Of a DNA stretch of 64,000 nucleotides, positions 8,844-40,074 are shown piece by piece. Under the pieces are notes generated by a model that had not been told where the DNA came from, did not search any database, and worked only from the letters and a program-made list of their open reading frames with translations. The translations under genes were made by a program, and so were the position numbers. Within the stretch, counting starts at the first letter, position 1. Every line of letters begins with the position of its first letter. This DNA comes from a virus (lineage: Duplodnaviria; Caudoviricetes). The stretch covers positions 953-64,952 of the IMG/VR virus record IMGVR_UViG_3300020042_006673; one strand, given 5' to 3'.

Positions 8844-11800
8844 ATGGCTGATAATGTAAATACTGCAATCTACGATACCCGTGTTGATCGTGCAGCAATG
8901 CTACGGTTGTTTGAAAGACGAGTGCAAGGTAAGGTTGAATTAGTGTTGAATGGTCATGCTGTTCGCACAGACGAGCTGATACGTGCTGCTAACCAATCTA
9001 ATAAAGGCTTTTTGGCATTAAGAGAGGCAATCGATGAGGACCTTCGAAATACCTATCGAGAGGTATATCAAGTCTCATCGAAGTCTCTCATTGATCTTGT
9101 AGGTGATCAGGTCTCTTACACGTATCAAGTATTGGATAATGCTATTGGTAAATTATGGAGAACAGAACGTCCTGGTCGTAGAGTTGCTGAAGAGTTGGTT
9201 TTAAATAAGCCACTACATGCTAATACCACATTAGCACAAGGTTGGTCAAATATTAGTGTTGGAGAAAGACGTAGACTAGAGAATATAATTCGGAAGGGAA
9301 TCGCGGATGGCAGTAGCGTAGAAGATATTGCTTTAATGGTAAGACGTGGAAATGTCCATAAGATTAGTCTACGACAATCTCAAGCTTTGGTTATCACATC
9401 CATCACCAGTGTAACAGCACAAGCCGATCATGAAGTGTATACAGCTAATAAGGATTCGCTTACGGGATGGCAATATGTTGCAGTGTTAGATAGCAGGACT
9501 ACTGATATTTGTGCGCATCGTGATGGTACTATTTATCCAATTGAAGACACTGAACATCTACCACCTGCTCATTTCCATTGCAGATCGACTACAATACCTA
9601 TTGTAAAGTCTTGGGATGACTTAGACAAGCTTGAAGGTGTGGCTCAAGTAAGACGTAGAAATCTTTCAGGTCTTAGTGCAAAACAAAAAGCATACTATGA
9701 CGGTCAGACACCCTTAAAAGAATCTTACGATCAATGGCTACGTAGACAGCCTACTGAGGTCCAGTTAAGACACCTTGGCGATACTCAGAAACTAGAGATA
9801 TTTAGATCAGGTCAACTTACATTAGATAAGTTTACTAATGCTGAAGGCAACTCTGTTGGTATTAGAGAGCTTTCAGCTATGACTATCCCAACTGTATCTG
9901 GAGATACTCGTAGGTTTGCCTTAGCTAAAGAGAAATTAGATACCATAAAGGTAGGTGCATCGACACCTGATGACTTTATTGGTGACACTGACTTGACTAA
10001 AGCCTTAAGTGAGTATTATGTACTACAAGCTGGTGAACTAAACGGTACCTTGTCTTTGACTAATTATCGTGGAGCTTTACTCCATAATAAGAAAGCAACA
10101 AAAGCTAGGGTATTGAGCACTTTACCTACTGAAGCTAATACTAGATTTAATCCTATAACAGGTCGTTATGAAGATACTCGTATATATCAACCCTCGCCTA
10201 TCACTCTAGAGAATACTCAGAGGTTAGTTAGAGAGAGTGAAGATTTATTGCCTAGAGATAAAGAGTTTATAACTAACTTTATTGATAGTTTAGAGTCTAA
10301 GATAAGTGTTAACGAACGTGCTGTGATATCTGAAAACCTTCGAATCCTTTTTACTAGGTATCGTAAGAATGGTGAAGTCTGGACTAACTTCAAAGCTGTG
10401 GCACAAAGCCAAATTAAGTTTGATATTGCAAACGTTTCAGACTACATTGAAACACAGATACGTAAAGATGCACATTTATTGCCTAAACTACTTCAAGATA
10501 ATTATATAGATCCTGTACTCGGTCCTGTTCAATTAGACGATCTTAGTAAGAACTTTATTAAAAATATTAAGGCAAAGAACAAGTGGGAAGATGCGGTAGC
10601 ACCTAAGATTGCTAAAGAGCTACGTGGATTCTTAGATTTAAATATTCCTATTAAGATAAGGTCTAGATTAAATGATAATTCATTACAAGAATTTTACCTA
10701 AAGTTTGCACATCGGTTAGCACTTGCAGATTCCCCTGATAGGGATCAGTTGGCAGTAGCTCTAGGTAGAGACCTCTACAACTTAGCTAATTATCGTGGTT
10801 CTCGAAACGAATGGTTCAACCTAGGAATTAAAATTCTAGAAAAAGCTGAGAAGAAAGGTTTTTACAAGTTAGAGACCTTTGGTACTCAAAAAAGACGTTT
10901 GAAAAGTAGGCTAGGCGGTAATTACTTTGGCCCATACTACGACACTTTTGCCGTGAACTTACGAATCACTGATCCTAGGATTCAAGAATACTCAAGGTTA
11001 ACTCGTAGTGTAGAGCTAGGACTTCGTGTAGCTGTCACCGATGCGAAGAATAGACTAGTCTTTAGGAAGGGCTATAAAACCTATTGGATAGATCGTGGTA
11101 TACTAGGCTATGAAGATACTCGAATCCCGATCACATCTACTGGCAGCTTCGGTGATTTTCCGACTGATCTTATTGATGATGATCTTGTTGACGCCTTAGA
11201 TTGGGCCTCAAAAGCTGAGTATAAGGTAGATCCTGATTTCTATGACTTTGCTACTAAGCTTTTAAAATTTGAAGATGATAAAGGTCGTGCTAAGTATTAT
11301 CATGGATTGAATCAATACAGGGCACACTTGCTGGAGCGTGGTGACTCTTATGAGCGATTGAAGGCTTTGGAGTGGCTACGCAATAGTGGCAAATCCTTCA
11401 GTAATCATCCTTTTTTAGATCATCGTGCTAGGATATATGATAGAGGTTTGATTGGGCCACAGTCTGGTGAAACCTTTAGACCTTTCTTAAGTACAGCTGA
11501 AGCTAAGAACTTTAGTGCTGAAGACTTCTTTAATTTACAAGATCAGATAGGCTCTTTCTTAGGCGGATTGAACGATTACTTTGAAGGCTTTAATAATTCA
11601 CTATCTATCTTAGGTCGTCAAAAGATCGCAGAGAAGTGGCGTAAGGATTTAGTTGAGATTGGTAATCATATTCGTCGTGGTAAACCTAACGATATTAGGG
11701 CTGTATTAGAGTCTAACTTATTGTCTAGGATTGATGGTGAAGATCAGGGAAAAGCCTTGCGATTGGCACTAGAGGTATCAAAAATTGACGAGTTCCTCCA

Positions 11801-14190
11801 GGGCAACTACTCCAAGGCGAACCTCGTTAAATTAAAGGAGTATAGAACCTCACTTGCCTTAGAGCAAGACGCATCCTCCTCTGGTGCACAGATAATTGCG
11901 TTAACCACAAAGAATAAGCAATTAGCTGAGTTGAGTAATGTAGTTCCTACGAATTATAAAAGAAGACTTTATGATGAGATTGCTGCATCTACTTTTAGAG
12001 ACCCTCGATTTATCAAACTAAATCAAAAGTTAGGGCTTACTGAGAAAGATTTAAGAAAGGCTGCAAAAGCTCAGAACTTAGTTACCTTTTATGGTGCAGG
12101 TGAACGTACCGGCATTATAAATGTTGAAGCTAAACTTTCTAAAGCATTAGGCAAGAACGAAGGTCTTCTTGTAGTAAAAGCATCTGACAGAGACACTGTA
12201 CTGTCTGAGATCGCTGCTAGAGCGGCACGTTATGAGAAGTTTGATAAAGAGACGTATCTTGAACTTAAAGCTCTTAGACAAGACGTTAAAGAGATTTTTA
12301 ATAAAGGTATAACTCCTGGTGATGATATTATCGAACAACTTTATTTTTTAGATCCTAAGACTCGAGAGTTGGTTGAAAAATTAACTAAGCAATATGATAC
12401 AGTTGTTACACCAGACGACTTTAAAGAGATTGCACAAATCTTTAGCGAAAACTTAAGGGTTCAAGTTCCTATTTTGAGAGACTTTACCAGGTTCTTTGGA
12501 AGACTTGCCGAAGATTTCCTTTCAAATGCCAAGCCGAGTCAATCTGATTTTGATTGGCCGGCTTTGATAAAGACTCAAATTAGAGGTACTAGAAAATCTG
12601 GTTATAGGCTTCCTAAAGCTATTAGTCGAATATTAGGACTTAAGGATGAACCGCTTTCAGAGAAATTCTTAAAACGAATCCCTGGATGGAATCCTGATGG
12701 TACTTTGTCAGAACTGCTATATGGTATAAGAGCACCTGAAGCAAGACGTACGGGCACTACTTTGTTCGGTATAAGCCCATTGCAATTGAAGACTTTAGGT
12801 GAGCTTGAAGTATTTACCCCTAACAAGTTACCTAAAAATTGGCCTAACGTTCCTTGGGTCAACTTTGACGGTAAAATTATTGAACAGAATTTTACACAAG
12901 TCTTTGAAGAGAAGTTAGTATATCTTGATAAAGATGGTCATCGAGTTATCAATATTCTCCAAGTTCCACAAAAGACTGATCCTACTTTCTGGGAAGAGTT
13001 AATTAACAAATCCGGAAAGATTAATGATATTGCTGATGTGAATAAAGCTAGGACTGCCTTTGCAGTTAACGGTGAAATCTGATTGCCGTTGTAAAATTCC
13101 GTGAATTCGGTGGATAACCTTAGGGTCAATACCGAGCCAAGCTTTGAGAGAACTCTCTTAGAAGGTGTAACGACTATTATGTAGGGCACAAGTGTGCTCG
13201 AAGCGCGGAACAGTGAAAACTGAAGATATAGTCTGATCTATATAGTAATATATAGCTGTTAATTATGGAGAGTATTAATGAAATTAGAACGCCTAAGGGC
13301 CCTTTTCTATTGCAAAGATGGTAAATGTTATAATCGCATCTCACGAGGTTCAGCTAAGAAAGACTTAGAGGCCGGTTATATAGCAGAGGATGGTTATAGA
13401 CGAGTTAGAATAGATGGTAGCTATCATTATATACATAGGGTGGTATGGATGCTTTCAACAGGAAAGGCGATTCCTGATGATTTGTTCATTGACCATATTG
13501 ATGGTAACAAACTCAACAATTCCATACAAAATCTAAGACTAGCGTCCTCCCTTGAAAATCAGTATAATAAATTTAGACAAACCAATGGCAGTAGCCAGTT
13601 TAAAGGTGTTTGGTTTGATTCTAAGAAAGACTGTTGGAAGGCTTCAATTCGTTTAAAAGATCGACGATTCTATATAGGTCAATTTAACACAGAAATTGAA
13701 GCTGCTATTGCCTATGATAAACTTGCAATAGAAACTCAAGGTACGTTTGCCAAACTCAATATTTTAACGGGGTTGCCTAACGAACAACCCGAACAAAACG
13801 AATCATTCCAACGATGCAACACTCGTTAAGCAGTTCCATTTATGGGGTAAGAAAAACGGTGTACCTACCTCTACTATCCATGATGCGTTCTTTACGAATG
13901 CATCCGAGATGGTTAGGGCTAGAAATGCACTAAGACAGCTTTATGCAAATACCTTGAAACGTAATGTAATCAAGTCTACCTTAGACGAGATGCGTAGCCG
14001 AGGTTTGCCCAAAGAACTTTATAATAAATACTTAGAAGAAGCTATCGCGATAGGCCTGATTCCTGTTCCAGGCAAGTCTATTGTAGGTGGCCGTGTATTA
14101 ACTGAAAAAGATATTTTAACAGATGCCGATATCTTAGCTAATATTCCTGAAGGTTTCAAGAATAATTATGCATGGTACGGTGTCAATTAA
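8844..14190 (+). CDS. MuF/SPP1-gp7 head morphogenesis domain fused to a T7-like single-subunit RNA polymerase; spliced join(8844..13073,13801..14190), 1539 aa
   Basis: N-terminal MuF motifs WQYVAVLDSRTTDIC and PPAHFHCRST. RNAP motifs DHRARIY (aa 859), A EQDASSSG (D1009), B RKAAKAQNLVTFYG (K1075, Y1083); after splicing, AVNG^NHSNDATL and motif C TIHDAFF (D1438). Exon 2 is in frame with track ORF 13909..14190. Confidence 0.9.
13074..13800 (+). ncRNA. Group I self-splicing intron (IA-like), 727 nt
   Basis: 5' exon ends in U, paired with IGS GCCGUU 13085-90; P10 UGAUU/AAUCA; P3 13097-103/13204-10; P4 13107-12/13130-35; P7 GACUA 13172-76/UAGUC 13229-33; J8/7 GAAGAUAUAGUC; P8 CAGU-GAAA-ACUG; P9 13238-55; terminal G 13800. 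Confidence 0.93.
13278..13829 (+). mobile_element. Intron-encoded HNH-AP2 homing endonuclease
   Basis: HRVVW...IDHIDGNKLNNSIQNLR (HNH_3 type) plus AP2 domain SQFKGVWFD...WKASI...GQFNTEIEAAIAYD; GGAG RBS; lies in the intron P9 region. Confidence 0.9.
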
Positions 14191-14237
14191 TTGGACCGTG
14201 TCCACAATTTAAATAGGCTGTGCCTAAAGGAAAAGAA

Positions 14238-14930
14238 ATGCCATTAACCCCTGAAGAAATTGCTGCAAAAGAAGCTGAAGATGCTTTGAAGAAGGCTGAA
14301 GAAGATGCGAAAGCATTGTCTGATGCTCAGAAAGCTGGCAATCAAGAGCTTATTGATAAGCTGGTTGCAGACAAGGTTGCAGAACAAGTTGCATCTCTCA
14401 AGACTAAACTTGACAGTGCATACGAGGCAAGAGATAAAGCTTTACAAGAAGCCGCTATCTTGAGACAAAAAGAAAAAGAAGCAGAGTTAGAGCGTTTGAA
14501 AGCTGATGGAAAGCATAAGGAAGCTTATGAGTTACAATTGGCGGAAGAACGTGCTACTAACGAAGCACTTAAGAAGCGAAATACTGAACTGACACGAGAT
14601 GTTAACGTACGTGACGCTATGAAGGCGTACTCTTTCAGAAGTGATAAAGCAGCAGAAATGGCATTTCATGAAGTTGCCAATCAACTGACACAGGATGAAA
14701 AGGGTGTATGGGTACATCGCAGTGGTATTTCGATAAGCGATTTTGTAAAGTTGTTCGCTGAGAACAAAGATAATGCCTTTTTGTTCAAAACTAAAGCTAA
14801 TACCGGTGGCGGCTCTAGTGAAAGTGGGGATGGTAGTCTCGACAATACACAAAAACCAACGTCCTTATTTAAGCTCTCACAAAAAGAAGTTCTAGAGATG
14901 GCTGAAAAAGGACAAATTAAAAGAAAGTAA
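14238..14930 (+). CDS. Capsid scaffolding protein
   Basis: Glu/Lys/Ala coiled-coil directly upstream of MCP; AAGGA RBS before ATG 14238. Confidence 0.8.
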   Translation: MPLTPEEIAAKEAEDALKKAEEDAKALSDAQKAGNQELIDKLVADKVAEQVASLKTKLDSAYEARDKALQEAAILRQKEKEAELERLKADGKHKEAYELQLAEERATNEALKKRNTELTRDVNVRDAMKAYSFRSDKAAEMAFHEVANQLTQDEKGVWVHRSGISISDFVKLFAENKDNAFLFKTKANTGGGSSESGDGSLDNTQKPTSLFKLSQKEVLEMAEKGQIKRK

Positions 14931-14934
14931 TTAA

Positions 14935-16122
14935 ATGCCTTTACGTACTAATGTCACCGGTGCTACTAACTACGCACTGCAAGAAGCTATTGGCGGTTAT
15001 TCTGACGAAGCTTACACGACTGCTAAGAAACTGTCGGGTACTGCACTTGTCAGTCCTAACCCTGAAATCCAGACTGACGGTGAAACCTTTATTGGTCAAA
15101 TGCGTTGGTTCAAACCATTGACGCCTGTTGTTAACGTGGCATCTTTGACTGATTCCTCGAACGGTACGCCTACTACTTACGGCTCTGAGTATTTGACCTA
15201 CATCAAAACTGTGCGTACGCATGGTGCTGAGAAAGTCAATATGCAGAAAGTTGTGACTCAGGATGACGGTCTGGCTAAAATTGGTCGTGACTTTGCTGAA
15301 ACCCGCAACCAAGACGAACACAATGCAATTCTGTCCGTGTTGAAGGGTGTTGCACTGGCTGAAGTTCTCAATGGTGCAGCCGCTGCTTCTGGTGCTACTG
15401 GTCTGGGTGGCCAAACGTTCACCAATGACGACACGGATAAGAAATACGGTTTCTATGTCGATCTGGGTGCAGCTTTGCCTGTTATCGCTGCTTCGGCTTC
15501 TGTGCAAGGTGCGGCTCGTGCTGAGGGCTTCTTGCAAGCTATCGGCATGGCGTGGAAAGATTACGAGCCAGAGTATGCTTATCTGGTAACCAGCCCTGAA
15601 GTTATGGCATCTTTGCGTTCGGCTAATCTGGTCGAGGATGAAGGTGTTGTTGAGGGCAATGTTACCTTTAATACCATCTTCGGTGGCAAATTCCGTTTGA
15701 TTCAGACTCGTGCTTCTCAAGGCTTTAGTTCGGCTGAGCGTACTAAGATCAATACGGGTGCTGGTGTTGACTTGGTTGGTACTAAGTGTTCCTATGTTGT
15801 ACTCCCTGGTGCAATTGCAATGGAACAAGTTGCGATTGACGATTCGGTTGAGATTTATCGTGACGGTCGTGCTTATAAAGGTGGCGGTTCTACGAATATC
15901 TGGTATCGTTGGGGTTATGTGGCGCATCCGGCTGGCTATAATTGGGCTGGTAGTGCTGATGCATTCCCTGCTGATGCTGATTTCTACAAAGCAGTTGAAG
16001 GTGGTTCGCCATTGGCTCTGGGCTCTGTTGTGTCCGGCACCCTGGCTTCCACCACTGGTACTTGGATTCGTAAAGCGAATTCTGCATTGAATCTGGGCAT
16101 CTTGCCGATTTTCCACAGCTAA
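14935..16122 (+). CDS. Major capsid protein
   Basis: 395 aa after scaffold; strongly biased, highly-expressed-type codons; motifs MRWFKPL, WYRWGYVAHP. Confidence 0.85.
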   Translation: MPLRTNVTGATNYALQEAIGGYSDEAYTTAKKLSGTALVSPNPEIQTDGETFIGQMRWFKPLTPVVNVASLTDSSNGTPTTYGSEYLTYIKTVRTHGAEKVNMQKVVTQDDGLAKIGRDFAETRNQDEHNAILSVLKGVALAEVLNGAAAASGATGLGGQTFTNDDTDKKYGFYVDLGAALPVIAASASVQGAARAEGFLQAIGMAWKDYEPEYAYLVTSPEVMASLRSANLVEDEGVVEGNVTFNTIFGGKFRLIQTRASQGFSSAERTKINTGAGVDLVGTKCSYVVLPGAIAMEQVAIDDSVEIYRDGRAYKGGGSTNIWYRWGYVAHPAGYNWAGSADAFPADADFYKAVEGGSPLALGSVVSGTLASTTGTWIRKANSALNLGILPIFHS

Positions 16123-16137
16123 TATAGGATTCCACTT

Positions 16138-16614
16138 ATGGCACTCAGTAAAGGCACTAACGCATATGCTACAGTCGCTGAAGCCGATGCATACTTTACG
16201 GACAGGATAGATGCTGATACTTGGACTGCTGCTTCAGCTACTAAAAAAGCACAAGCCTTGATTACAGCAACTCAACTTCTGGATACGTTAAATTGGACAG
16301 GTGTTGCTGTAAGTGAATCCCAACCATTAGCATTTCCAAGGTCTGGTGAGTTCTTCGATCCTAGATTAGGTACTAATATCTTTATTCAAGATTCAACACC
16401 TAATTACGTGGTCAGGGCGAACTATGAGCTTGCACTACATTTGTTAAATAATACTGGTGTATTAGATGACACAGGTAGTGTCGATTCCGTTAATCTTGGT
16501 ACTGTTTCACTCACCAACATTTTAACTCCTAGTAAAATACCGAGCTCTGTTAGACGTATTATTAAACCCTTGCTTGTCAACTCAGGTTCTAACCCATGGT
16601 TTAGGAGTAACTAA
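16138..16614 (+). CDS. Head-tail connector (DnaT-like annotated family)
   Basis: NAYATVAEADAYF, KAQALITATQLLD, QPLAFPR motifs; position after MCP. Confidence 0.8.
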   Translation: MALSKGTNAYATVAEADAYFTDRIDADTWTAASATKKAQALITATQLLDTLNWTGVAVSESQPLAFPRSGEFFDPRLGTNIFIQDSTPNYVVRANYELALHLLNNTGVLDDTGSVDSVNLGTVSLTNILTPSKIPSSVRRIIKPLLVNSGSNPWFRSN

Positions 16615-16952: not shown

Positions 16953-16953
16953 T

Positions 16954-17355: not shown

Positions 17356-17357
17356 CA

Positions 17358-19402: not shown

Positions 19403-22400
19403 ATGGCAATTCAAGTCGAAGTCGTCTCAGACTCTAAAAGAGCACAAGAAGACTTAGCTCGACTGAATGCATCCGTAGGTAAGATCCAGGATGCTACGTC
19501 CAAGGCTTCAAAATCGTTTTCTACATTTGCAACAGCAACAACTGCTATATTTACAGCATTTGCAGCTGGCAGTATCTTAACTAAAACTTCTGATACACTT
19601 ACTAATTTAAATACTAGACTTAAAATTGTAACTAAATCACAAGATGAACTTAATGTTTCTTTTAGAGCAGTAACTAAGATTGCATTAGATTCACGTAGTA
19701 ACCTTTCTGCAGTCGGTGATCTATATAGTAAAGTCGCCAGGTCAGGTAAGCAGTTAGGTGCAAGTCAACGAGATATCGTAACATTCACTGACAATGTTAC
19801 AAAGAGCATAGCTCTCTCGGGTTCTAGTGCACAATCTTCAACCGCTGCTATTATTCAGCTAGGCCAGGCTTTAGCCTCTAATAGACTTAGCGGTGATGAA
19901 CTTAGATCGATCCTTGAGAATGCCCCGGCATTGGCTGAAGCTTTGGCTAAAGGTCTAAAGATCAGTGTTGGTGAACTTCGTAAGTTAGGTGAACAGGGCC
20001 AACTGACATCAGTCAAGGTTTTCAAGTCCCTATTAAGCCAGACTGACGAAATTAATTCAGAGTTTAAGAAGGTAGGAATCACCTTCGCGGGTGCCTTCAC
20101 AAACCTAGGTACATCGTTTACTTTGATATTTGATGCTGTCTCTAAAGCCATATCGGGTTCACGAGGCTCTTTTGCAGGCTTTATTAATGACATTGCATTA
20201 CGCATTGCTAACATTGCAACTAATTTCTCTTTTATTTTGTATAAAGTTAGAATTGGTTTTATTGACTTTGCCATATATGTGGTAGACCTCTTTGATCGAA
20301 TCAAAGATAGTTTGGATGAAGTCGCACAAAAACTAGTGAAGTCTGCAAGTGCCCTATACACAGCTTGGACTCCCGCGTTGAAAGGATTGGCAGCATCTTT
20401 TGTAGTCTGGAGTAGCACTGCGAAGGACGCTATTAAGTCTGTCTACGGTACATTTACAGAATACCTAAGCGGTACGGCTATCGGTCAAGCACTAATGTCA
20501 GGTTTTGCAAGTACAATTACTTTCTTTAAAACAATTAAAGACACTATTGTAGATGTTTTCACTGATATCTTTCCTACTATTGACGTTGGCAAATTCTTTC
20601 CAAATTTAGATGTTGTATTAGGTTACATTCGTAAATGGTCTCTTGCTGTTGAGGGTTGGTTCTTCTATCTATATGATAAAGTAATTGGTAATTCTTGGAT
20701 TCCCGATTTGGTTCTTGGTGTTATATATTGGATGAAGAAACTCCTTGGCACACCTTTAAAACTGGTCGCTGAGTTCGTTAGCAAATCTAATGCTGGATTT
20801 AAATCGGTAAGCTTTGGTTCTATTTTTACTGTCGGTTTAGTGGCAGCTAAGAAGTATTACAAATCTTTGTTACTTATCGCTGGCGTATTAGGTGGGATCG
20901 CCCTTGCGTATAAAGCATTCGGACAAGGCGGTTTACCTTCTAATATTAAGGTACAAACCGCATTATCTGGTAACAAGGTACAAGACACCTTAGCCAAGAT
21001 CCAATCTAAACTATCCAAGCTATCCGACAGTGCTATTAAATGGTTCGGTTCAAGTACTTTTGGAAGAACTGTTAAACAGTTGTTTGGTGTTAAAGACACT
21101 GTTCCTGGAAAAGTATTTGGTGATTTCATTGATACTGGTGCATTTGTAGGTCGAGGGACACAAAGGAATAGCCCAGATAGGTCTTTTCTTCATGACTTTG
21201 TTAATGCATTCCCTAGAGAGATTCAGATTCCTTTATTGGCAACTTTGACAGGTGTGTTTTCACTGGCAATTGTAGCTGCTACTCAGTCTGGTGGATTTAG
21301 ATCCGCTTTATTAGGCATTCTTACGACTATCTTTGCAATAGTTGTGGCTAGGACTGTTGACCAGAAAACGACTTTTAATTTCACTACTGGACTTGCTAAC
21401 TCTTTTGTGCAGGCTTTGAAATCGGGGCTTGATGCCCTGTTTGGAGGCTATGCCACTAAAGATCCTTTAGGTGTACTCGCCACCATTGCGAAACTTGCAT
21501 TACTATTTAAGTCAGGCAGAGCCTTTATTGGTAATGCCCTGCTAGGGGCTGCAACTGCCCCGACTAGAGCGGTCAATATCGCTGGTGATGCCTTTACTAA
21601 ACGTGGTATTGATGCCCAAGTAAAGAGCTTGGATAAGGCAATCAATAATCTACCTAAAGACTTGGCTAACAATGCTAGAACTACTAATGAAATATTAAGA
21701 CGACAACTTAATAAATTAGCAGATTCTAATGACCGACTAGGAAATCGGATAGGTTTAGCACGAGCACAAGCTGCAATCAATTCTGGTGGCAGTTCATTTC
21801 AGTTCGGGCTAGCGTCAGCTGCTGCTTTGTTCAATGCTAGTAGAGCTAATGCAGTGGCCGAGAAGGCTAATCGTTCCGTAGGTAATGAGAGCGCTATTCG
21901 AGATGACTTAGTAGCCCAGCAAAAGGCCTTGACAGCTCAAAGCGAAACACTAGGCAACAGAGTAGCTGCTGCAAAAGATGCAACCGTGACTGGCATTAAA
22001 AATACTACTGCAGGTGCTGCTGGTATTATCGGTGGCATTGCTGGTTTCCAGATAGGTGCTGAAATTGCCAAAGGAATGGCAACATCTCCTGCTTGGGTCA
22101 AAACTGGTGTAACTTTAGCTGCATCTTTTGTAGGACAGGGCGTAGGCTCTGCTATAGGTTACGTTATAGCCACTGCGATACTAGGTGTCGGTAAACTCAT
22201 TACTGTCAATATTGCCCTTGCAGGTATTGGTTTTGGCTTAAATGTAATTAAGACATTACTGTTAAGAAATCCGTTTGTTGTTGGTGCAACGCTTTTGGCT
22301 GCAGCCTTATTAGCTGGCTACACTCTTTTTAAAAGCTTGCCTGAAGACTGGCAGAAGGCACTTAAAGCAGATATCAGTAATTTAGGTAATTCGTTGTTTA

Positions 22401-25303: not shown

Positions 25304-25391
25304 CTTTAAGAACGTACCCTCTCCGGAGGGTGCATTCTACTATCAACTATAGTAGAATGTATCTTCTATAACAACAGAACAAAGGAACTAT

Positions 25392-32463: not shown

Positions 32464-32656
32464 TATCCAAGGTTCACAACACGAGAAGAATCGGTCTGAA
32501 GTTCGCGCGGATGTATTGCTGAGTCAATTTAAAAATATGACCCCACAACAAGCCGCCAACTGGGTAGATACTAACGTCAACAATATTGCAACTGCAAAAA
32601 TTGCTTTGAAGATGTTTGCAAAGATGTTAGTCATACTCGCTAAGGATATCACCTAG
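32453..32656 (+). CDS. Hypothetical (possible fibre assembly) protein
   Basis: Overlapping start, 67 aa. Confidence 0.55.
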   Translation: MRLNIQGSQHEKNRSEVRADVLLSQFKNMTPQQAANWVDTNVNNIATAKIALKMFAKMLVILAKDIT

Positions 32657-32939
32657 GTTTTGATAGACTGGCTAGTCGTCTTCTCAACTACAGTTAGCCA
32701 ACTGGCAGTTAGGCTTTTTCGGCTTGCGAGGTTGTTGCAGGCGGCGCGATTTGGGGTGTCCCGATATGGTCGTGATGGGCACTTTTCGCGCCTCACCTGC
32801 GCACACCTGGTGCAAATTTCAGGAAGTCGATGATTTTTAACAAAAAATATTTCATCAACAGCGATCATTTTCATGGTATAATATACAATTTACGATAGTT
32901 CGTAAAGGTTCAAGTTAACCCTACTACACATTAGTGATA

Positions 32940-32958
32940 CTCGACCCCGTTAAATTAA
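32940..32958 (+). promoter_or_regulatory. Motif B copy 1 (CTCGACCCCGTTAAATTAA), candidate phage-RNAP promoter
   Basis: Exact 19-bp repeat of 54974-54992; intergenic, upstream of the lysis cassette. Confidence 0.5.
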
Positions 32959-33080
32959 AGGAATAGGTGCCCTCCCCTGTCCTCTATCTATGTTGTATAT
33001 TGTTATAGTTAATAAAAATATTATAAAAGAATGGATATGGAATATATTTATTCTTCTAACAGAACTACACGGAGTATGCT

Positions 33081-33584
33081 GTGACAGAACGTAGAGAGCC
33101 TGAAAAAATGTATACTGAAGAAGAAGCCAATCATATGATTGCAAGGGAAGTAGCAAAGCAACGTATGAATGACCTTGAAAGAAATTTAAATCAAACGACA
33201 ACTGCAGTTGTCCAAAACTTTGCTAAGTTCGATGCAAAGATGGATGCAATTGCACAACAGGTTTCTGAAATAGGTAGTAGAGATTACTTACTTAGAGATG
33301 ATGTAGAAAGAGATTTCAGTAAGTTTGAAGCGAAAATGGACAGGCTTGCTCAAATATTCGCTGATCATCAATCTGCAGTTTTTACTAGAAGCGATGCCAC
33401 TCAGGAGTTCGTGACTAAACTTACTATGGCGCAGGAAGTTCACAGTCTGAATTCAAGCATTGCTAACGTAGATAATGTGGTAAAAGGCTTAGTTATCAAG
33501 CTTACTACCATTGTCTCAACAATAACTATATTAGGCCTATTTGCGAATTATTACATTAATTTTGCAAAGGTCATTACTCCCTAA
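33081..33584 (+). CDS. Coiled-coil protein with C-terminal TM helix (lysis cassette)
   Basis: Internal duplication FAKFDAKMDAIAQ/FSKFEAKMDRLAQ; TM LTTIVSTITILGLFANYYI. Confidence 0.65.
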   Translation: MTERREPEKMYTEEEANHMIAREVAKQRMNDLERNLNQTTTAVVQNFAKFDAKMDAIAQQVSEIGSRDYLLRDDVERDFSKFEAKMDRLAQIFADHQSAVFTRSDATQEFVTKLTMAQEVHSLNSSIANVDNVVKGLVIKLTTIVSTITILGLFANYYINFAKVITP

Positions 33585-33598
33585 CATAAAGGAAATGT

Positions 33599-34159
33599 AT
33601 GCTAACATCATTGATTACTTTACTAGGTGGCGGCCTTGGTGGTCTATTACGATTTGTCCCTGAAATATTTAAATTTTTCAATGACAAAGGCGATAGAGCA
33701 CATGAGCTTGAGATGACTAAACTGCAATTAGACATCGACAAAGCTAGGGCTACACAAGCCATCGATTTTGTAAGAGCTAATTCTGAAGCAGAGCTTGCAA
33801 AGGTCTCAGTGGAAGCTCAAGGTCGAATTGCTGATAGTGAAATGAAAGCATTGGCTGAAGCTTTAAAATCTCAGAGTAAAATGACTGGAGTAGCTTGGAT
33901 TGATGGTTTAAATCAATCAGTCAGACCAATCATAACATACTGGTGGATGGCCTTATTGACTGTTTATAAAGGTGTACTTGTTATTGTAGCCACTATTGAG
34001 CTATTCGCCGTATTGAAAATTGCAAATGGTATGGCGACTTCTGCTCCAGCTTTATTGGCTTTTGCTGATAAGTTGTGGACACCTCAAGACGCTGGTATAT
34101 TAGCAATGATCTTAGGTTTCTGGTTCGTGGATCGGTCATTGAAACATCAGGTAAGATAA
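33599..34159 (+). CDS. Holin (3TM-type)
   Basis: SLITLLGGGLGGLLRFVP start, SVRPIITYWW, ILGFWFVDRS end; directly before the endolysin. Confidence 0.8.
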   Translation: MLTSLITLLGGGLGGLLRFVPEIFKFFNDKGDRAHELEMTKLQLDIDKARATQAIDFVRANSEAELAKVSVEAQGRIADSEMKALAEALKSQSKMTGVAWIDGLNQSVRPIITYWWMALLTVYKGVLVIVATIELFAVLKIANGMATSAPALLAFADKLWTPQDAGILAMILGFWFVDRSLKHQVR

Positions 34160-34161
34160 TC

Positions 34162-34581
34162 ATGGATCTTATGACGTTATATGTCCTGATACGTAGATTT
34201 GAGGGCTTACGATTAAAGGCTTATTTATGTCCGGCAGGTATTTGGACTTGTGGTTATGGCTCTACTGGCCCTGATGTGAAGCCTGGAGTGGAATGGACGT
34301 TGGAGTACGCAGAAACACGTATGAAGGCGGATGCTTCTCGTTTTGCATTGGGAACTTTGCGGTTGTGTCCTACGTTAGGAGGTGACAATCTATCTGCTAT
34401 TGCAGACTTTGCGTATAACCTAGGGCTTACTCGATTAGCTAGTTCTACACTTCTACGTAAACTTAAAAAAGGTAATACCGAAGGTGCAAGAGTTGAGTTG
34501 CATAAGTGGGTATATGGAGGTGGTAAGAAATTACCAGGTCTTGTTATCCGAAGAGCGATTGAAGCTAGTTTATTGAAATAA
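34162..34581 (+). CDS. Endolysin, GH24 lysozyme
   Basis: IRRFEGLRLKAYLCPAGIWTCGYG (E-x8-C-x5-T triad), FAYNLG, KWVYGGGKKLPGLVIRR; start moved from track 34075. Confidence 0.93.
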   Translation: MDLMTLYVLIRRFEGLRLKAYLCPAGIWTCGYGSTGPDVKPGVEWTLEYAETRMKADASRFALGTLRLCPTLGGDNLSAIADFAYNLGLTRLASSTLLRKLKKGNTEGARVELHKWVYGGGKKLPGLVIRRAIEASLLK

Positions 34582-34586
34582 AGAAT

Positions 34587-34619
34587 CCCTTGAGCCTTAA
34601 AAAGCTTGAGGGCTTTTTT
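34587..34619 (+). terminator. Intrinsic terminator after endolysin
   Basis: CCCTTGAGC/GCTTGAGGG stem (two G-U pairs) followed by T6, which overlaps motif A copy 1. Confidence 0.7.
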
Positions 34620-34644
34620 GCGAATTTCTTGGTATCTTATATGA
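34614..34644 (+). promoter_or_regulatory. Motif A copy 1, candidate early promoter
   Basis: TTTTTTGCGAATTTCTTGGTATCTTATATGA, identical to 35048-35078. Confidence 0.65.
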
Positions 34645-34679
34645 AGAGAACCATAAACCAAAACCAAAGGATAAATATC

Positions 34680-35018
34680 ATGAAAGTATTTTTTATTTTA
34701 ATTCTTGCGATACTCTCAATAACAGTCTATCTGTCAGGTGCGTCTAATGTTGAGCAAATTGAGATTGCAACGAAAGCAGCTGAAGCACAGGCCGCTAAAG
34801 CTAAATCTGATGCTGACGAATTGGCCAAGGCTTGGGCCAGATCTGAGACTGCGGTAAAGTCTGTAGGGTTGCAAGATAAGATTCAACAAATGTCTGATGA
34901 GTTGAGTGCGCCATTACTTGAACAGATTAAGCAGGATATGTCCGAGTTAGATAAAGCAAAGGCGCATAACAATGCTGAGACTGAGAGACTACTGGCTAGG
35001 CTGAAGGCTGGACAATGA
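34680..35018 (+). CDS. Signal/TM-anchored coiled-coil protein
   Basis: AAGGA RBS before ATG 34680; MKVFFILILAILSITVYLSGA, then Ala/Glu/Lys coil. Confidence 0.65.
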   Translation: MKVFFILILAILSITVYLSGASNVEQIEIATKAAEAQAAKAKSDADELAKAWARSETAVKSVGLQDKIQQMSDELSAPLLEQIKQDMSELDKAKAHNNAETERLLARLKAGQ

Positions 35019-35047
35019 AGTAAAGTTACGACATCTAAAAGCTTAAG

Positions 35048-35078
35048 TTTTTTGCGAATTTCTTGGTATCTTATATGA
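35048..35078 (+). promoter_or_regulatory. Motif A copy 2
   Basis: Exact 31-bp repeat of 34614-34644, 20 nt upstream of ATG 35098. Confidence 0.65.
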
Positions 35079-35097
35079 TAACCACCAGGAGACTTAC

Positions 35098-35640
35098 ATG
35101 AAAGCTATTTTACGATTTGCAGTAATTTGTGTAGTAGTTTATGGGTTAACTTTGTTACCTTCGCCGGCGCCTCGAGTCGAAGTTAAGCCAGTAGTAGAAT
35201 ACGAAATTGTGCCGGAGGAAACACCTGCAAAAGTGCCGACTAAGGTCTCTGCTGACAAAGAAATACATTGTTTAGCAGATGCTATTTACCATGAAGCTAG
35301 AGGTGAGGGTATTGAAGGGATGTCGGCAGTAGCATCTGTTATTATGAACAGGGTCAAAGATAGACGATGGCCTAACTCTGTTTGTAAAGTAGTTTACCAA
35401 AAGGGGCAATTTGAAGCACTGTTCCTTTGGAAGCCCGCTGACGAATCACATGCTTACAACAGAGCGCATCGTATAGCAAGGCTATTCTACTATAACAAAG
35501 GTGTAGATAAGACAGACGGTAGTTTATTTTTTAGAACTTTTAAAGTAGCCGACGCTGATGGGATTGTCATTGGTAATCATATCTTTCATAAAGAGTACAA
35601 GTATGCGGCAGTTCATGTTGCTAATAAGGAGTCTGAATGA
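35098..35640 (+). CDS. Cell wall hydrolase, SleB/Hydrolase_2 family
   Basis: CLADAIYHEARGE...AVASVIMNRV...WPNSVCKVVYQKGQF...IGNHIF; N-terminal signal/TM. Confidence 0.9.
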   Translation: MKAILRFAVICVVVYGLTLLPSPAPRVEVKPVVEYEIVPEETPAKVPTKVSADKEIHCLADAIYHEARGEGIEGMSAVASVIMNRVKDRRWPNSVCKVVYQKGQFEALFLWKPADESHAYNRAHRIARLFYYNKGVDKTDGSLFFRTFKVADADGIVIGNHIFHKEYKYAAVHVANKESE

Positions 35641-35772
35641 AATATTTTATAGACAAGTCAGGAGAAGTTTCTTCAATCATCATCGCAGCTAACTTTGTTG
35701 ATGCTGTGTTGGTTGCCAGAGCTTCACATTCAAAACAAACCAAACTACATGTAATCCCATATAAGGAGCAGT

Positions 35773-35982
35773 ATGACCCGTATTTTAAACTTTCCATTAT
35801 CTGAGACATTGACCGTGGACTTGGCTTTAAAAAGCGCTATAACGGCGAGTGAGCTGCTGTCTACTGTACTTATAGTAGGCTACTACAAGGATGGTCGAAT
35901 GTTTGTAAGATCATCGCGAATGGACCGTAAAGATGCTTTATGGCTATCTGAGCAATTAAGGGATTACGCAAAACATTCTTAA
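35773..35982 (+). CDS. Hypothetical protein
   Basis: AAGGAG RBS. Confidence 0.65.
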   Translation: MTRILNFPLSETLTVDLALKSAITASELLSTVLIVGYYKDGRMFVRSSRMDRKDALWLSEQLRDYAKHS

Positions 35983-36006
35983 ATCAGCATTCTTAAAGGA
36001 GAAAAA

Positions 36007-36297
36007 ATGTCTAACAGTAAATTAACTTTAGTAGCATTTGTGATTTGTATTTCCTTCGGTCTTTTGATGGCTAGTAATGTTTCAGCAGAGACCGTTAGAG
36101 AAGTGGATTCCGTCACAGGTAGTACTCAGTACCACAAGCCCGCACTTAAACGTGAGGGCCAAAAAGTCTATGAGGTGAGAGATGGTAGAGTGCAATACGG
36201 CAAACCTGCTTATGTTCTTGATAAAGGTGTTTGGCGTAGTACCTATCCAGGCACGAATCGGATAGACTACAACCGGCCTGGTTTTAAACCTGAATAG
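36007..36297 (+). CDS. Putative secreted protein
   Basis: AAGGAG RBS; signal peptide ending in VSA. Confidence 0.65.
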   Translation: MSNSKLTLVAFVICISFGLLMASNVSAETVREVDSVTGSTQYHKPALKREGQKVYEVRDGRVQYGKPAYVLDKGVWRSTYPGTNRIDYNRPGFKPE

Positions 36298-36327
36298 TGA
36301 TTTGTTAATAACTCAAAGGAGATTTAC

Positions 36328-36525
36328 ATGAATGGGATCATAGACACGGTTATGATTGGCGATAAGATGTACAACATTGTTGAAAGTACTGCCTTGAACG
36401 GTTGTGATGGCTGCGCACTGGTGACAGAAGGTTGTTTCTTCCTAGATAGACCTTTTTGTACCAGTCCACAGAGACATGATAACCGTGAAGTAATCTTCAT
36501 GGCAGTAGTGCCAATCAAACAATAA
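36328..36525 (+). CDS. Small Cys-containing hypothetical protein
   Basis: AAGGAG RBS; CDGC...CFF...C. Confidence 0.6.
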   Translation: MNGIIDTVMIGDKMYNIVESTALNGCDGCALVTEGCFFLDRPFCTSPQRHDNREVIFMAVVPIKQ

Positions 36526-36541
36526 ATTTATAATATGTTTA

Positions 36542-36568
36542 TTGCGGGTTTTCAGGTATCTTATATGA
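36542..36568 (+). promoter_or_regulatory. Motif A copy 3
   Basis: TTGCG-GGTTTTCA-GGTATCTTATATGA; same 8-nt spacer as copies 1 and 2. Confidence 0.6.
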
Positions 36569-36609
36569 AGAAGTAGTAAACTAGTAGTAAAACCAAAAGG
36601 AGATTTAAA

Positions 36610-36756
36610 ATGAAACAAGGTAAAGAAATGAAGGTAGCTCGCGGTTCCGCTCGTGCAAGTCGTCGTATGGGTATCCCTCGAAAGGGCACTAATGCTCGTA
36701 AGCTGTGGGACAACCCACCTAAAGAAACAGAAGTCGAAGTAGACGGCAATAAATAG
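36610..36756 (+). CDS. Small basic protein (48 aa)
   Basis: AAGGAG RBS; MKQGKEMKVARGSARASRRMGIPRKG...; not in track. Confidence 0.6.
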   Translation: MKQGKEMKVARGSARASRRMGIPRKGTNARKLWDNPPKETEVEVDGNK

Positions 36757-36803
36757 TATTCAGTTAATGTATCACATTCAATTACCCCAAAAGGAGATTT
36801 AAA

Positions 36804-37274
36804 ATGAACGTTCAATATGTAATTTCAGAAGAGTCTTTTGATGCTGCTGGTAACTTGGTTGTTGTCTACAAACCTACCAGCCCCTATTCACGGCTAATTG
36901 CCAATGTGAAGAAGTGGGGTGCGTCAGTCTGTTTAGTAGCCATCTCTGCAATAGCAGGTTGGGCTTATGGCGAAAATCTACAATTCGAGGGTAATACTTT
37001 GTGGTCCAATTCGGATCGCATTATCGTATTACAATCTCAGAAGAAAGCTTTGACTTCCGCCAATGCAGTACTTACCGCAGAATTGACGAAGACACAAGCA
37101 GAGCTAAAAGTTAAATCAGCAGCGCTATCCAATGCCTTGATCCCCGAGGCAACTGCAGGTGAAGCTTTCAACAATCATGTCTGGCAGCCTATCAAATCCA
37201 CAGCTGTTTCTGTGGGCGCCGTAGTAGCTGAATCAAGCAAATCTGCTTACGCTACAGTGGCAGGTCTGTTCTGA
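36804..37274 (+). CDS. Membrane-anchored coiled-coil protein
   Basis: AAGGAG RBS; TM WGASVCLVAISAIAGWAY. Confidence 0.7.
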   Translation: MNVQYVISEESFDAAGNLVVVYKPTSPYSRLIANVKKWGASVCLVAISAIAGWAYGENLQFEGNTLWSNSDRIIVLQSQKKALTSANAVLTAELTKTQAELKVKSAALSNALIPEATAGEAFNNHVWQPIKSTAVSVGAVVAESSKSAYATVAGLF

Positions 37275-37573
37275 TGAAAAAAGAAAAGAAGTCAATCGTC
37301 GCAGTTTGGGCAAGGGGAATCTGGGATTGGTGCAAGGGTGCTGACAAAGAACCCAGGTTGTATGAAGTGTATCGAGCTATCGCAAAGGCTAAGGCCAGTC
37401 TTCGTGACTTGGACTACATGCTTTCTGCACCTACAAGGTTGGAGCTAGAAATGGCTGAAGTCGATAAGCTGGGTCACATAATCAACACGGCACCGCCTGG
37501 CTCTAAAAAGTATCTTGCAGCTATCAAAGAGTTAGAAAAGCTTGACAAGAAGTTTCAGTCTGGAAGGCGGTAA
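37274..37573 (+). CDS. Hypothetical protein
   Basis: TGATG-coupled, 99 aa. Confidence 0.65.
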   Translation: MKKEKKSIVAVWARGIWDWCKGADKEPRLYEVYRAIAKAKASLRDLDYMLSAPTRLELEMAEVDKLGHIINTAPPGSKKYLAAIKELEKLDKKFQSGRR

Positions 37574-37578
37574 GTAGA

Positions 37579-37630
37579 GTCCATCCCTTCGGGGATGGGC
37601 TTTCTTTCTTCTTTCTTTTATTTTTTTTTT
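37579..37630 (+). terminator. Strong intrinsic terminator
   Basis: GTCCATCCC-TTCG-GGGATGGGC followed by a ~30-nt T-rich tract. Confidence 0.9.
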
Positions 37631-37663
37631 GTATTGTTGCGTATCACAGTGCTTTAGGTAACC

Positions 37664-37792
37664 ATGCTAAAATATGAAATATATTTTAGGCTGATGATCG
37701 CCGTACGAATGATAGCCTTCGTGTTTGTAAACGGAGTAGCAATATGTTTATTGATTTATTGTATTCCTTGGTTATTAAATATAGTAGTTTAA
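37664..37792 (+). CDS. Possible small membrane peptide (42 aa)
   Basis: Hand-translated hydrophobic ORF MLKYEIYFRLMIAVRMIAFVFVNGVAICLL...; weak RBS. Confidence 0.35.
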   Translation: MLKYEIYFRLMIAVRMIAFVFVNGVAICLLIYCIPWLLNIVV

Positions 37793-37809
37793 TTGGGGAC
37801 TAAGTTTCA

Positions 37810-40074
37810 ATGAGACAAAATTTAATTGATTCACTCACCCGCAGGTATGTAAGAGAGCTTGTTGTTCAAAACCCTGTTAGCTTTATTAAAGAGTATAAGC
37901 CTGAGGACTATATCGATGCTGTTACCTCTATTGTGTACTTATACACAAGAGCGGGCAAAGGCCGTGATAAAAAGCTTATACAATTCTCAGAAGTGATTTC
38001 CGCCATAGGTCATGCTATACGTACAAAGTATAAGCTTAAACGTGATTCTGCGTTATCTGCTAAACTCGGAGCTTTCCTTTTATATAGCTTTCAGGAGCTG
38101 GGGATGATACAAGTTAGTCTGGAGAAGGCGCCTAATGGACATAACGTATATGGAATTACAGTAACTAATGAGGATGCTCTAGGTAAACTATGGAATGTTA
38201 TTGATGAGTCTGTGACTGAAAAACTACCATCTCTAACACCGTACCCTGATTGGTTATCTGGCAAACAACCAAATGGAACATCCCTTGTTAAGACTAACTC
38301 TAAAGATGTTATATCTAGTCTATCTCCAGAAACACATCCTATTGTATTTAATTGTGTGAACAGAGCGCAAAAGGTCGGTTGGATGGTAAATGCAGCTGTA
38401 TATGAAATATATACATGGGCTTTAAGGAATAAGGCTGATGCCTTCCACGAAATATGGGAAATGCAGAGTCAAGAGGCTAAGACATCGAAGCTTAGAGAAG
38501 CCAAGGCCATAGGTACGATTGCGAAGAGATTCATGGGTAAGATCTTCTACCATCTGTATTACTTAGATTTCCGTGGAAGAAAATATCCTGCAACTGCATA
38601 TTTTCATGAACAGGGAACTGATCTCGCAAAAGGTCTATTGTTAAGAGCAGATTCTAAACCTATAACGGAGCAGGGCTACTATTGGTTATTAATATCTATT
38701 GCCTCGAATTGGGCTGGCGATGCCGGTAGAGAAGACCAAGCAAAGACTGATAAAATACCATTAAATGACCGAGTATATTGGGCAGAGGATAATGAAGAGA
38801 TTTTGATGTCATACGCCGTAAATCCTAAAGTTAACCAAGGTTGGATGCGTGCTGATAAGCCTTGGCAATTTCTAGCTGCATGTATGGAATGGCATAAAGC
38901 AAAATCTTGGGTTATTACTGCTAATTTTGGTAGAGTGTTACAAGGGCTTCCTCCCCTTACAATATATGACTATGTGTCTCACCTTGAATGTTATATAGAT
39001 GGTTCTACAAATGGAAGTCAACATTTAGCAGCGTTAATGCGCGATGAAGTGACTGCACCATATGTCAATCTCATACCACAAGAACTTCCTGGAGATTTAT
39101 ATCGATATGTTGCAGAGCATGTTTGGCATAAATTGGATAAAATAACTTCCAAACTTTCATCAGAACAATCTAAGGCTTGTAATGAGATTATCGATAATTT
39201 AAAAGATATTAAAAAGCAAATATCCGATACACCAGAACGTTCGGATCGTAGAAAAGAAGCTTATGCTGAAATGATTTTGTATAAAGAAGATCATAAAGAC
39301 TCTTTTGAGCTTGCTGCTCCTGTTTTTTGGAATAGAATTAAGGATGCTAAAGAGAGAAGGAAGATTGTAAAAAGGGGTGTCATGACGCTACCTTATGGTG
39401 GAACTGCTTACGGGTTAGGTCAACAGGTTATCGATGATTCACGTAAACATGGCATTGATCTGTTACTTTATGGTGAACATAAATGGAGCAGTTATATGGG
39501 GAAACTTATCTTCGATGATTGTCGAGAAAGTTTGAAACGACCTATGAGACTGTTAAGTATATTTGAAAGTGTCGGTAAGAAAGCAGAAGCTGATGGCAAG
39601 TTTTTAAAATGGTCATTGCCGTTGACTAATTTTCCTGTAGTTCAACATTATGTGGAAGGTAAGGTTAGAAAAATATATGTTCAGTATGGCCCACAGGATG
39701 GATATAGAGACAGCTCGGGCTATTACGAAAACACCTTTCAGGTAAATATCTGTTTCATTGAAGATACTAAACCTAGTAAAAAGAAGCAATCACAAGCTGC
39801 CGCACCTAACGCTATACACAGCTTAGATGCAGCACATCTTATGCTTGCATGCAGTCGAACGGAGTTCCCTGTGACAACAATTCATGATAGCTTTGGGTGT
39901 TTATTATCTGAGATGCCTGAGCTGTTCGTTGTTATAAGAGAAACATTCGTAGAGTTGTATAATCAAAATCCTTTAAAGGTATTATTGGAGGATATGGGAG
40001 GCTCATTGGATGGAATTGAAATGGGTAATTTAGATATTAGCCTAATTTTAGACAGTGAATACGCTTTTAGCTAA
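37810..40074 (+). CDS. T7-like single-subunit DNA-directed RNA polymerase (RNAP2)
   Basis: YYLDFRGRKYP, motif A YIDGSTNGSQH, motif B RKIVKRGVMTLPYG, APNAIHSLDAAHL, motif C TIHDSFG. Confidence 0.97.
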   Translation: MRQNLIDSLTRRYVRELVVQNPVSFIKEYKPEDYIDAVTSIVYLYTRAGKGRDKKLIQFSEVISAIGHAIRTKYKLKRDSALSAKLGAFLLYSFQELGMIQVSLEKAPNGHNVYGITVTNEDALGKLWNVIDESVTEKLPSLTPYPDWLSGKQPNGTSLVKTNSKDVISSLSPETHPIVFNCVNRAQKVGWMVNAAVYEIYTWALRNKADAFHEIWEMQSQEAKTSKLREAKAIGTIAKRFMGKIFYHLYYLDFRGRKYPATAYFHEQGTDLAKGLLLRADSKPITEQGYYWLLISIASNWAGDAGREDQAKTDKIPLNDRVYWAEDNEEILMSYAVNPKVNQGWMRADKPWQFLAACMEWHKAKSWVITANFGRVLQGLPPLTIYDYVSHLECYIDGSTNGSQHLAALMRDEVTAPYVNLIPQELPGDLYRYVAEHVWHKLDKITSKLSSEQSKACNEIIDNLKDIKKQISDTPERSDRRKEAYAEMILYKEDHKDSFELAAPVFWNRIKDAKERRKIVKRGVMTLPYGGTAYGLGQQVIDDSRKHGIDLLLYGEHKWSSYMGKLIFDDCRESLKRPMRLLSIFESVGKKAEADGKFLKWSLPLTNFPVVQHYVEGKVRKIYVQYGPQDGYRDSSGYYENTFQVNICFIEDTKPSKKKQSQAAAPNAIHSLDAAHLMLACSRTEFPVTTIHDSFGCLLSEMPELFVVIRETFVELYNQNPLKVLLEDMGGSLDGIEMGNLDISLILDSEYAFS

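Follow-up and report, generated by a model that had tools for sequence, protein, structure and literature searches.

This report concerns a 64,000-nucleotide stretch of a tailed phage (Duplodnaviria; Caudoviricetes), positions 953 to 64,952 of IMG/VR record IMGVR_UViG_3300020042_006673 and here called the window, and in particular the two RNA polymerase (RNAP) genes and the two classes of repeated motif that it carries. One polymerase is fused to a MuF head domain and is encoded among the head genes; the other, RNAP2, is a free enzyme that heads the replication genes. All credible open reading frames (ORFs) are on the plus strand and GC skew is positive throughout the window, in agreement with an earlier note, made from the sequence alone, that described the genome as unidirectional. 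Coordinates below are window positions on the plus strand unless another genome is named, and motif counts for this phage refer to the window.

The fusion gene belongs to a head module with the order portal, MuF, scaffold, capsid, and the portal gene (7235–8806) adjoins it directly upstream. The earlier note had recognized a MuF–RNAP fusion in this late head operon, and both domains are supported by the matches described below, but the 1412-amino-acid (aa) ORF at 8844–13082 corresponds to exon 1 only. Exon 1 (8844–13073) encodes the MuF domain (residues 1–350), the N-terminal region of the polymerase and parts of its palm and fingers, including motifs A and B. The remainder of the enzyme lies in a 129-aa exon 2 (13801–14190), which contains NHSND, motif C (IHDAFF, with a catalytic Asp) and the C-terminal end. 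Between them is a segment (13074–13800) where the Rfam group I intron model RF00028 scores 69.8 bits (threshold 50) at 13030–13255, and where an ORF for an HNH homing endonuclease (13278–13829; PHROG 99, E 5e-51) fills most of the segment and extends 29 nucleotides (nt) into exon 2 in a different frame. The expected splice features are present, with a U preceding the 5′ splice site (T13073) and a G at the 3′ end of the intron (G13800). Full-length homologues of ∼1545 aa align by tblastn to 8844–13073 and then to 13801–14184, and in the uninterrupted homologues of G003 and G001 the junction AVNG|NHSND is read straight through. We take 13074–13800 to be a group I intron with a homing endonuclease, whose predicted removal would yield a 1539-aa fusion of the MuF domain and a complete T7-fold RNAP. 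Because exon 2 carries the second catalytic Asp, the unspliced product would be inactive.

The MuF assignment is given by a Pfam Phage_Mu_F match at residues 145–251 (E 4e-14, 53.6 bits; cut-off 29.6) and a PHROG head morphogenesis match over residues 1–345. The polymerase is more divergent. As a single sequence, the C-terminal part of exon 1 has no match among Protein Data Bank sequences, and exon 1 alone does not match Pfam RNA_pol; the intact fusion ORFs of relatives score 23.6–32.5 bits against a cut-off of 22. A profile of 28 sequences built from the downstream part of the fusion matches T7 RNAP (E 1.4e-23) and keeps all three catalytic motifs, A, B and C, in register, aligned to T7 D537, K631, Y639 and H811–D812. 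Across homologues DAS.SG.Q, K.......YG and IHDAFF are invariant (27–28 sequences), as are the catalytic D, K, Y, D and D (27 sequences). For the fold we used the uninterrupted G003 homologue, 63% identical to the protein of the window, as a stand-in for the spliced product. The AlphaFold model of its residues 355–1545 has a mean pLDDT of 81 and a pTM of 0.77, and Foldseek aligns it over >1000 columns to T7 RNAP (E 8e-18) and to mitochondrial RNAPs (1e-16). The sequence and model evidence together identify the C-terminal part of MuF-RNAP as a predicted T7-type single-subunit RNAP with complete catalytic motifs.

Insertions in this gene are not confined to the window. The MuF-RNAP genes of G002, G004 and G005 contain open in-frame insertions of ∼230 aa in the polymerase part, without stops, which look from their sequences like inteins at a conserved site different from the intron site of the window. 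Such insertions are a further sign of strong selection on the polymerase domain, a target of homing elements. They also bear on annotation, as these fusions are labelled only "minor head protein" and introns conceal the catalytic end of the gene.

RNAP2 (37810–40074, 754 aa) is a T7-type single-subunit enzyme that matches Pfam RNA_pol at 2e-67 (228 bits) and T7 RNAP at E 1e-45, with DGSTNGSQH, KRGVMTLPYGG and IHDSFG aligned and intact; it is ∼130 aa shorter than T7 RNAP at the N-terminus. As previously described, it stands at the head of the replication block, here a T7-like set of genes (40055–50821) for DNA polymerase A, exonuclease, primase/helicase, deaminase and ligase. Both polymerases match T7 RNAP, but similarity between the two is confined to brief segments at motifs A and C (E 2e-6). 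They are therefore divergent, as had been proposed, and not recent duplicates.

The nearest records are EBPR siphovirus 1, the deoxyuridine-DNA (dU-DNA) roseophages DSS3_VP1 and DSS3_PM1, and the Pelagibacter phages Kolga and Aegir. In IMG/VR, 18 contigs with an RNAP2 at 50–63% identity were taken as close relatives (five of them complete, 66–97 kb). Both polymerases are found in all five complete close relatives, in five of five long contigs from distant clades (fusions 28–46% identical to the query) and in DSS3_VP1, and genes related to the fusion recur in at least 587 IMG/VR stretches. In Kolga an RNAP2 homologue is present, but the MuF protein is 633 aa long and lacks a polymerase. No site resembling class A, described below, was found in Kolga within three mismatches, nor was a class B set recognizable there, so this phage is uninformative as a natural control. 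The free RNAP of G008 (L117) is in two pieces at 46656–48425, with a gap and one TGA, and judging from the sequence is probably also split by an intron.

The first motif class, class A, is clustered between the lysozyme gene and RNAP2. It has the core GGTATCTTATATGA, with TTGCGR ∼11 nt upstream, and the three copies listed in the earlier note are all present, against 0.27 expected by chance: 34614–34647 (core 34631; TTGCGA, then GGTATCTTATATGAAGA), 35048–35081 (core 35065) and 36538–36571 (core 36555). Copy 1 abuts a terminator-like hairpin with a T tract (34587–34612), which follows the gene for a phage lysozyme of family GH24 (34162–34581; Pfam Phage_lysozyme, 2e-32), the last gene before this terminator of the tail/lysis block. 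Copy 2 lies 17 nt before a cell-wall hydrolase gene (35098–35640). The sites precede a cassette of ∼10 small genes (34680–37573) that includes a membrane protein and this Hydrolase_2 enzyme, whose gene recurs in the matching cassettes of G001 (72 nt after a class A site) and DSS3_VP1. Two peptidoglycan hydrolases, at 34162–34581 and 35098–35640, thus flank the late/early boundary that we propose below.

Class A is almost fixed across lineages. The exact 14-mer occurs in 17 of the 18 close relatives, in 2–4 copies on the coding strand and 1–3.5 kb upstream of RNAP2, with one further copy near the homologue of gene 55142. In DSS3_VP1, GCATCTATAATGAAG is present at 35809 and 36256, between the tape measure gene, which these sites directly follow, and the RNAP gene, and again at 67793; in a third lineage, G006, GTATCTATAATGAAG occurs twice, 2.3 kb upstream of RNAP2. 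The sites of G006 and DSS3_VP1 have AAAGTGAGAAAA in common on their upstream side, and the consensus across lineages is G-N-ATCT-(T)ATA(A/T)-TGAAG, kept where protein identity is only ∼30%. As single-stranded DNA the class A sites fold at only −1.3 to −3.8 kcal/mol, two of the three no better than shuffled sequence, and an N4-style hairpin promoter was rejected because no stable hairpin forms. A de novo search of the window for a third shared intergenic motif returned only ribosome-binding sites, class A and weak class A-like variants. These variants (TATCTTCTATA), in the gaps at 25360, after the tape measure gene, and 61591, may be minor promoters or chance matches.

The second class, class B, is dispersed. 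The motif CCCGTTAAATTAA has two exact copies in the window, as previously noted, at 32943–32958 (GACCCCGTTAAATTAA), ahead of the genes at 33081–34581, and at 54977–54992, ahead of gene 55142 (232 aa, with an Ala/Lys-rich tail and no family match), where it runs directly into the class A-like TGATATATGAA. A third copy with one mismatch, which had been missed, lies inside the MuF-RNAP gene at 11820–11835 (AACCTCGTTAAATTAA, then AGGAGTA) and has a flank matching that of copy 1; with up to one mismatch allowed, 0.01 matches are expected by chance. The earlier statement that no motif copy was found ahead of the structural operon in the window needs amending, in that this class B-like copy is within that operon. 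GC-rich, apparently non-coding islands (32690–32830 and 54840–55080) precede copies 1 and 2, and an AT-rich stretch (32990–33050) follows copy 1, an arrangement that could be origin-like.

The five complete relatives have 5–8 class B copies each, 31 on the coding strand versus one on the opposite strand, and two in a reversed-pattern control; in complete relatives the motif precedes the replication, terminase and scaffold/capsid modules. G003 carries copies before the gene 55142 homologue, twice ∼1 kb ahead of the terminase gene (TerL), twice between the fusion gene and the scaffold gene, once at 90 nt before the first class A site, and once immediately before the first gene after RNAP2; a homologue of g40779 is among the genes preceded by a copy. 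Class A and class B both precede the gene 55142 homologue in relatives (G003, 12026/12656; G001, gene-forward 14107/14333). The gap between exon 2 and the scaffold gene is 29 nt in the window; the larger gap of G003 accommodates two class B copies, and the window-specific copy at 11820 may replace these. In DSS3_VP1 the motif takes the form TAGG[GT]T[GA]CGTTAAAGAGGGGGA and occurs ∼16 times in the gene orientation, with a tandem set of three before the portal gene, and G006 has ACCAGGGGACGCTAAAGAGAGA 5–7 times, with one copy directly after RNAP2. Only CG(T/C)TAAA is common to class B across lineages, whereas class A hardly changes. Both classes are conserved, co-oriented with genes and consistently placed, and by our comparison their sequences suggest a T7-like layout of a conserved block, an AT-rich stretch and purines.

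A further element separates the class A cassette from RNAP2. At 37576–37650 there is a GC-rich hairpin of 12 bp, after which comes a long pyrimidine/oligo-T tract (ΔG −27 kcal/mol, z −5.4). The same element lies directly upstream of RNAP2 in nearly every lineage, including L002, L003, L012, L016 and DSS3_VP1 (∼42340–42420), and L003 and DSS3_VP1 have TAACCCTTA in common ahead of their T runs. Termination, attenuation and RNA processing are all possible functions of the element. Because several of these genomes leave no space for a promoter between it and RNAP2, either RNAP2 must be expressed by read-through or the element serves some other purpose.

We infer from these arrangements a programme in which a packaged MuF-RNAP would fire class A and RNAP2 would then read class B, a reading of the sequences that as a whole, packaging and assignment of enzymes to motifs included, we give about an even chance of being correct. 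MuF-RNAP pre-mRNA would be made late, with the head genes, and spliced to give the 1539-aa fusion. By analogy with the MuF/SPP1 gp7 family, the MuF domain would anchor the fusion at the portal inside the capsid, and a few copies would travel with the DNA. Upon infection, the packaged enzyme would start at the three class A promoters (34.6–36.6 kb), right after the tail/lysis-block terminator, and transcribe the ∼3-kb small-gene cassette and then, by reading through the hairpin/oligo-T element at 37.58 kb, RNAP2. RNAP2 would in turn read class B, which from its distribution would serve the replication, terminase and scaffold/capsid modules of relatives and the sites at 32943, 54977 and 11820 in the window. 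The class with few copies precedes the gene for the free polymerase, the class with many copies precedes the modules that need bulk transcription, and this assignment is the simplest. The two-polymerase cascade outlined in the earlier note gains partial support here from the clustering of class A upstream of RNAP2 in three lineages, the genome-wide spread of class B, the co-orientation of both classes and the pairing of the polymerases.

Several observations weigh against this programme. The element between the class A cassette and RNAP2 is a strong terminator-like structure, and the earlier suggestion that class A expresses the cassette and possibly RNAP2 needs amending, in that only read-through would extend to RNAP2. 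The cell-wall hydrolase and membrane proteins of the cassette look, from their sequences, more like lysis genes than early genes. Class B copies are few in the window, and none is ahead of TerL or the scaffold gene. Conservation of the putative specificity loop in five genomes is ∼0.32 for both enzymes and does not tell which of them pairs with class A. The class A cores of DSS3_VP1 and G006 include a perfect TATAAT. Lastly, the best sigma-70-like site in the region (32855–32882; TCAACA, 16 nt, TG-extended TATAAT) is a good one, and host RNAP could therefore take part.

These last two points also favour a T7-style order of events, in which host RNAP would read class A, the 32855 site or both, RNAP2 would be made and would read class B, and MuF-RNAP would serve some other purpose, such as DNA pulling, replication priming or a boost to late transcription. 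In T7, too, the RNAP gene is preceded by three host promoters, and class A copy 2 scores in a sigma-70 consensus scan (TTGCGA, 16 nt, TATGAT). We nevertheless consider this account unlikely. Copy 2 is the only one of the three to pass the scan, and relatives do not keep the TT of the −35-like hexamer (ATACGG, ACGCGG), although the supposed spacer and the flanks are invariant, which makes class A an unlikely canonical sigma-70 promoter. The TATAAT of DSS3_VP1 and G006 lacks a −35 or TG partner, and its register differs from that of the clade of the window. In relatives, the 30 nt preceding the class B sites showed no counterpart of the 32855 site. Moreover, this account gives no reason why a capsid-anchored polymerase should be conserved and catalytically intact. 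The converse assignment, with MuF-RNAP, both injected and newly made, reading class B and RNAP2 reading class A, seems still less probable to us. It would fit the observations that class B precedes the class A cluster in every lineage, where an injected enzyme could start, and that class B heads the late capsid genes while MuF-RNAP itself is being made. However, RNAP2 would then serve just 2–5 promoters, mainly for its own gene, and the few molecules injected would be left to serve 5–16 promoters with no temporal order. Class B also varies between lineages in the manner of T7-group promoters with free RNAPs, while class A is near fixed.

That a single enzyme, most likely RNAP2 and perhaps with a cofactor, reads both classes is suggested by the class A-like 3′ half of class B copy 2 and by the AT-rich stretch and purine end common to both classes. 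MuF-RNAP would then be inactive or not promoter-specific, which is difficult to reconcile with the invariance of all its catalytic residues in 27 homologues, with homing introns and in-frame insertions at its conserved sites, as is typical of essential active genes, and with the strict pairing of the two polymerases; we regard this account as improbable. The motifs might, in a last alternative, be operators, replication origins or packaging signals rather than promoters, as the GC-rich islands and AT-rich stretches flanking class B copies 1 and 2 would allow, and T7 origins include promoters. Against this, the motifs are strictly co-oriented with genes, lie 20–60 nt before start codons, often directly after terminators, and in three lineages precede each gene module as a multi-copy set, which leaves a non-promoter role very improbable.

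The rest of the window is that of a long-tailed phage. The terminase gene (1257–2627) lies upstream of the portal gene, and downstream of the fusion are the scaffold gene (14220–14930) and the major capsid gene (14935–16122). These are followed by small tail genes, a 1966-aa tape measure protein (19403–25303; PHROG tape measure families, E 2e-67), a 1660-aa tail protein and a short block ending in the lysozyme gene, and then by the small-gene cassette, RNAP2, the T7-like replication block and many small genes. No sheath gene was seen in the interval between the capsid and tape measure genes. The largest ORF there is 212 aa, and a sheath is therefore judged absent, as the earlier note had concluded along with the length of the tape measure. 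A zinc deaminase (48893–49324) is of the dCMP_cyt_deam_1 family, which acts as a dCTP deaminase in DSS3_VP1; with a nucleotide-kinase-like protein (41345–41941) and a DHH phosphoesterase (53788–54663), it raises from sequence the possibility of dU-DNA in this phage. An HD-family dTMP phosphatase was not found among the window ORFs scanned, a subset of the total. At 58310–58950 the anticodon loop of a CAU-anticodon tRNA is apparently split by an insert of ∼590 nt, which matches the group I intron model at 58520–58838 with 43.8 bits (below the gathering score of 50) and E 8.5e-10; ARAGORN makes no call for this split tRNA.

The logic of the proposed cascade is already known from two systems, N4 and P23-45, and its parts are new, much as the earlier note had put it in likening the phage to N4 in logic with different components. 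N4 (Schitoviridae) uses its virion RNAP gp50, then RNAPII (gp15/gp16) and then host RNAP, and has three early promoters. The likeness lies in a capsid-borne T7-family RNAP proposed to fire a few early promoters and to lead to a second T7-family RNAP. The differences are several. N4 is a podovirus, whereas the phage studied here is long-tailed; the N4 early promoters are DNA hairpins, whereas class A forms no stable hairpin; and N4 RNAPII is a heterodimer, whereas RNAP2 is a single chain. N4 gp50, at ∼3500 aa, brings regions of its own for injection and encapsidation as well as a metallopeptidase domain (PMC5512222). A MuF domain is lacking in gp50, a giant protein in which the mini-vRNAP is central and the metallopeptidase/encapsidation region C-terminal, whereas the fusion consists of an N-terminal MuF domain followed by an RNAP that ends right after motif C. 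In fold the fusion is closest to T7 and mitochondrial RNAPs, and the N4 virion RNAP (mini-vRNAP) is absent from its sequence-profile matches and its top fold matches. With this architecture and no hairpin promoter, we rejected identity of the fusion with an N4-like virion RNAP.

The Thermus phage P23-45, also long-tailed, has a virion RNAP fused to the tape measure protein (gp96) and a non-virion RNAP (gp64) (PMC10770324). There, gp96 transcribes the pre-early genes, including that for the second RNAP, and each enzyme has its own DNA motif (PMC10770324). The phage of the window resembles it in combining an RNAP fused to a structural protein, a second phage RNAP and two distinct motifs. The P23-45 enzymes, however, are two-barrel RNAPs related to cellular RNAPs and use a tape measure anchor, in contrast to the T7-type enzymes and MuF anchor found here. 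With T7-like phages (Autographiviridae) our phage has in common RNAP2, the DNA polymerase, primase-helicase, exonuclease and ligase, the unidirectional genome, and a many-copy phage promoter, putative here, ahead of gene modules; T7 differs in being a podovirus that makes its RNAP via host RNAP and has no polymerase in the capsid.

A parallel in culture is provided by DSS3_VP1 and DSS3_PM1 (Naomviridae), dU-DNA siphoviruses (PMC8323127) with the same unidirectional gene order, a MuF-RNAP fusion 31% identical over 82% of its length and a free RNAP 36% identical, and in DSS3_VP1 both motif classes occupy the same relative places. The fusion of DSS3_VP1, a phage of Ruegeria pomeroyi DSS-3, is 1463 aa long (QGH74596.1). 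They differ in that protein identity is only ∼30–36% and the fusion is annotated only as 'minor head protein-like'; the text of the DSS3_VP1 paper (PMC8323127) makes no mention of RNA polymerase. In the literature on MuF or Naomviridae with RNA polymerase we found no description of the fusion or the cascade. To our knowledge, virion RNAPs have been shown in a few groups only, namely N4-like, crAss-like and jumbo phages (AR9, phiKZ) and P23-45. A 2017 survey of polyvalent proteins described how the MuF head domain acts as carrier for an enzymatic domain at the C-terminus, which is delivered with the DNA, the known cargoes being toxins, ADP-ribosyltransferases, nucleases and similar, and recorded virion RNAP modules only in N4-like phages (PMC5512222).

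If the programme is correct, a T7-type enzyme anchored by MuF would offer an uncomplicated, modular means of packaging a polymerase, by means of a domain otherwise known as a toxin carrier. Both enzymes and both motif classes are present in the cultured phages DSS3_VP1 and DSS3_PM1, which makes the system directly testable. Expression tools are a possible use, as the two polymerase/promoter pairs would be small and orthogonal and one of the promoters is very conserved. More broadly, we propose tentatively, as a generalization that is rather less likely than not to be correct, that a large and mostly uncultured group of siphophages, including the Naomviridae, carries out its whole transcription independently of host RNAP, with a MuF-delivered polymerase and a near-invariant class A 'ignition' promoter at the start and a faster-evolving RNAP2/class B pair for middle and late genes; transcription along the one-directional genome may in addition help to draw the DNA in. 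Were this so, host-independent transcription would be extended to a widespread group of siphoviruses.

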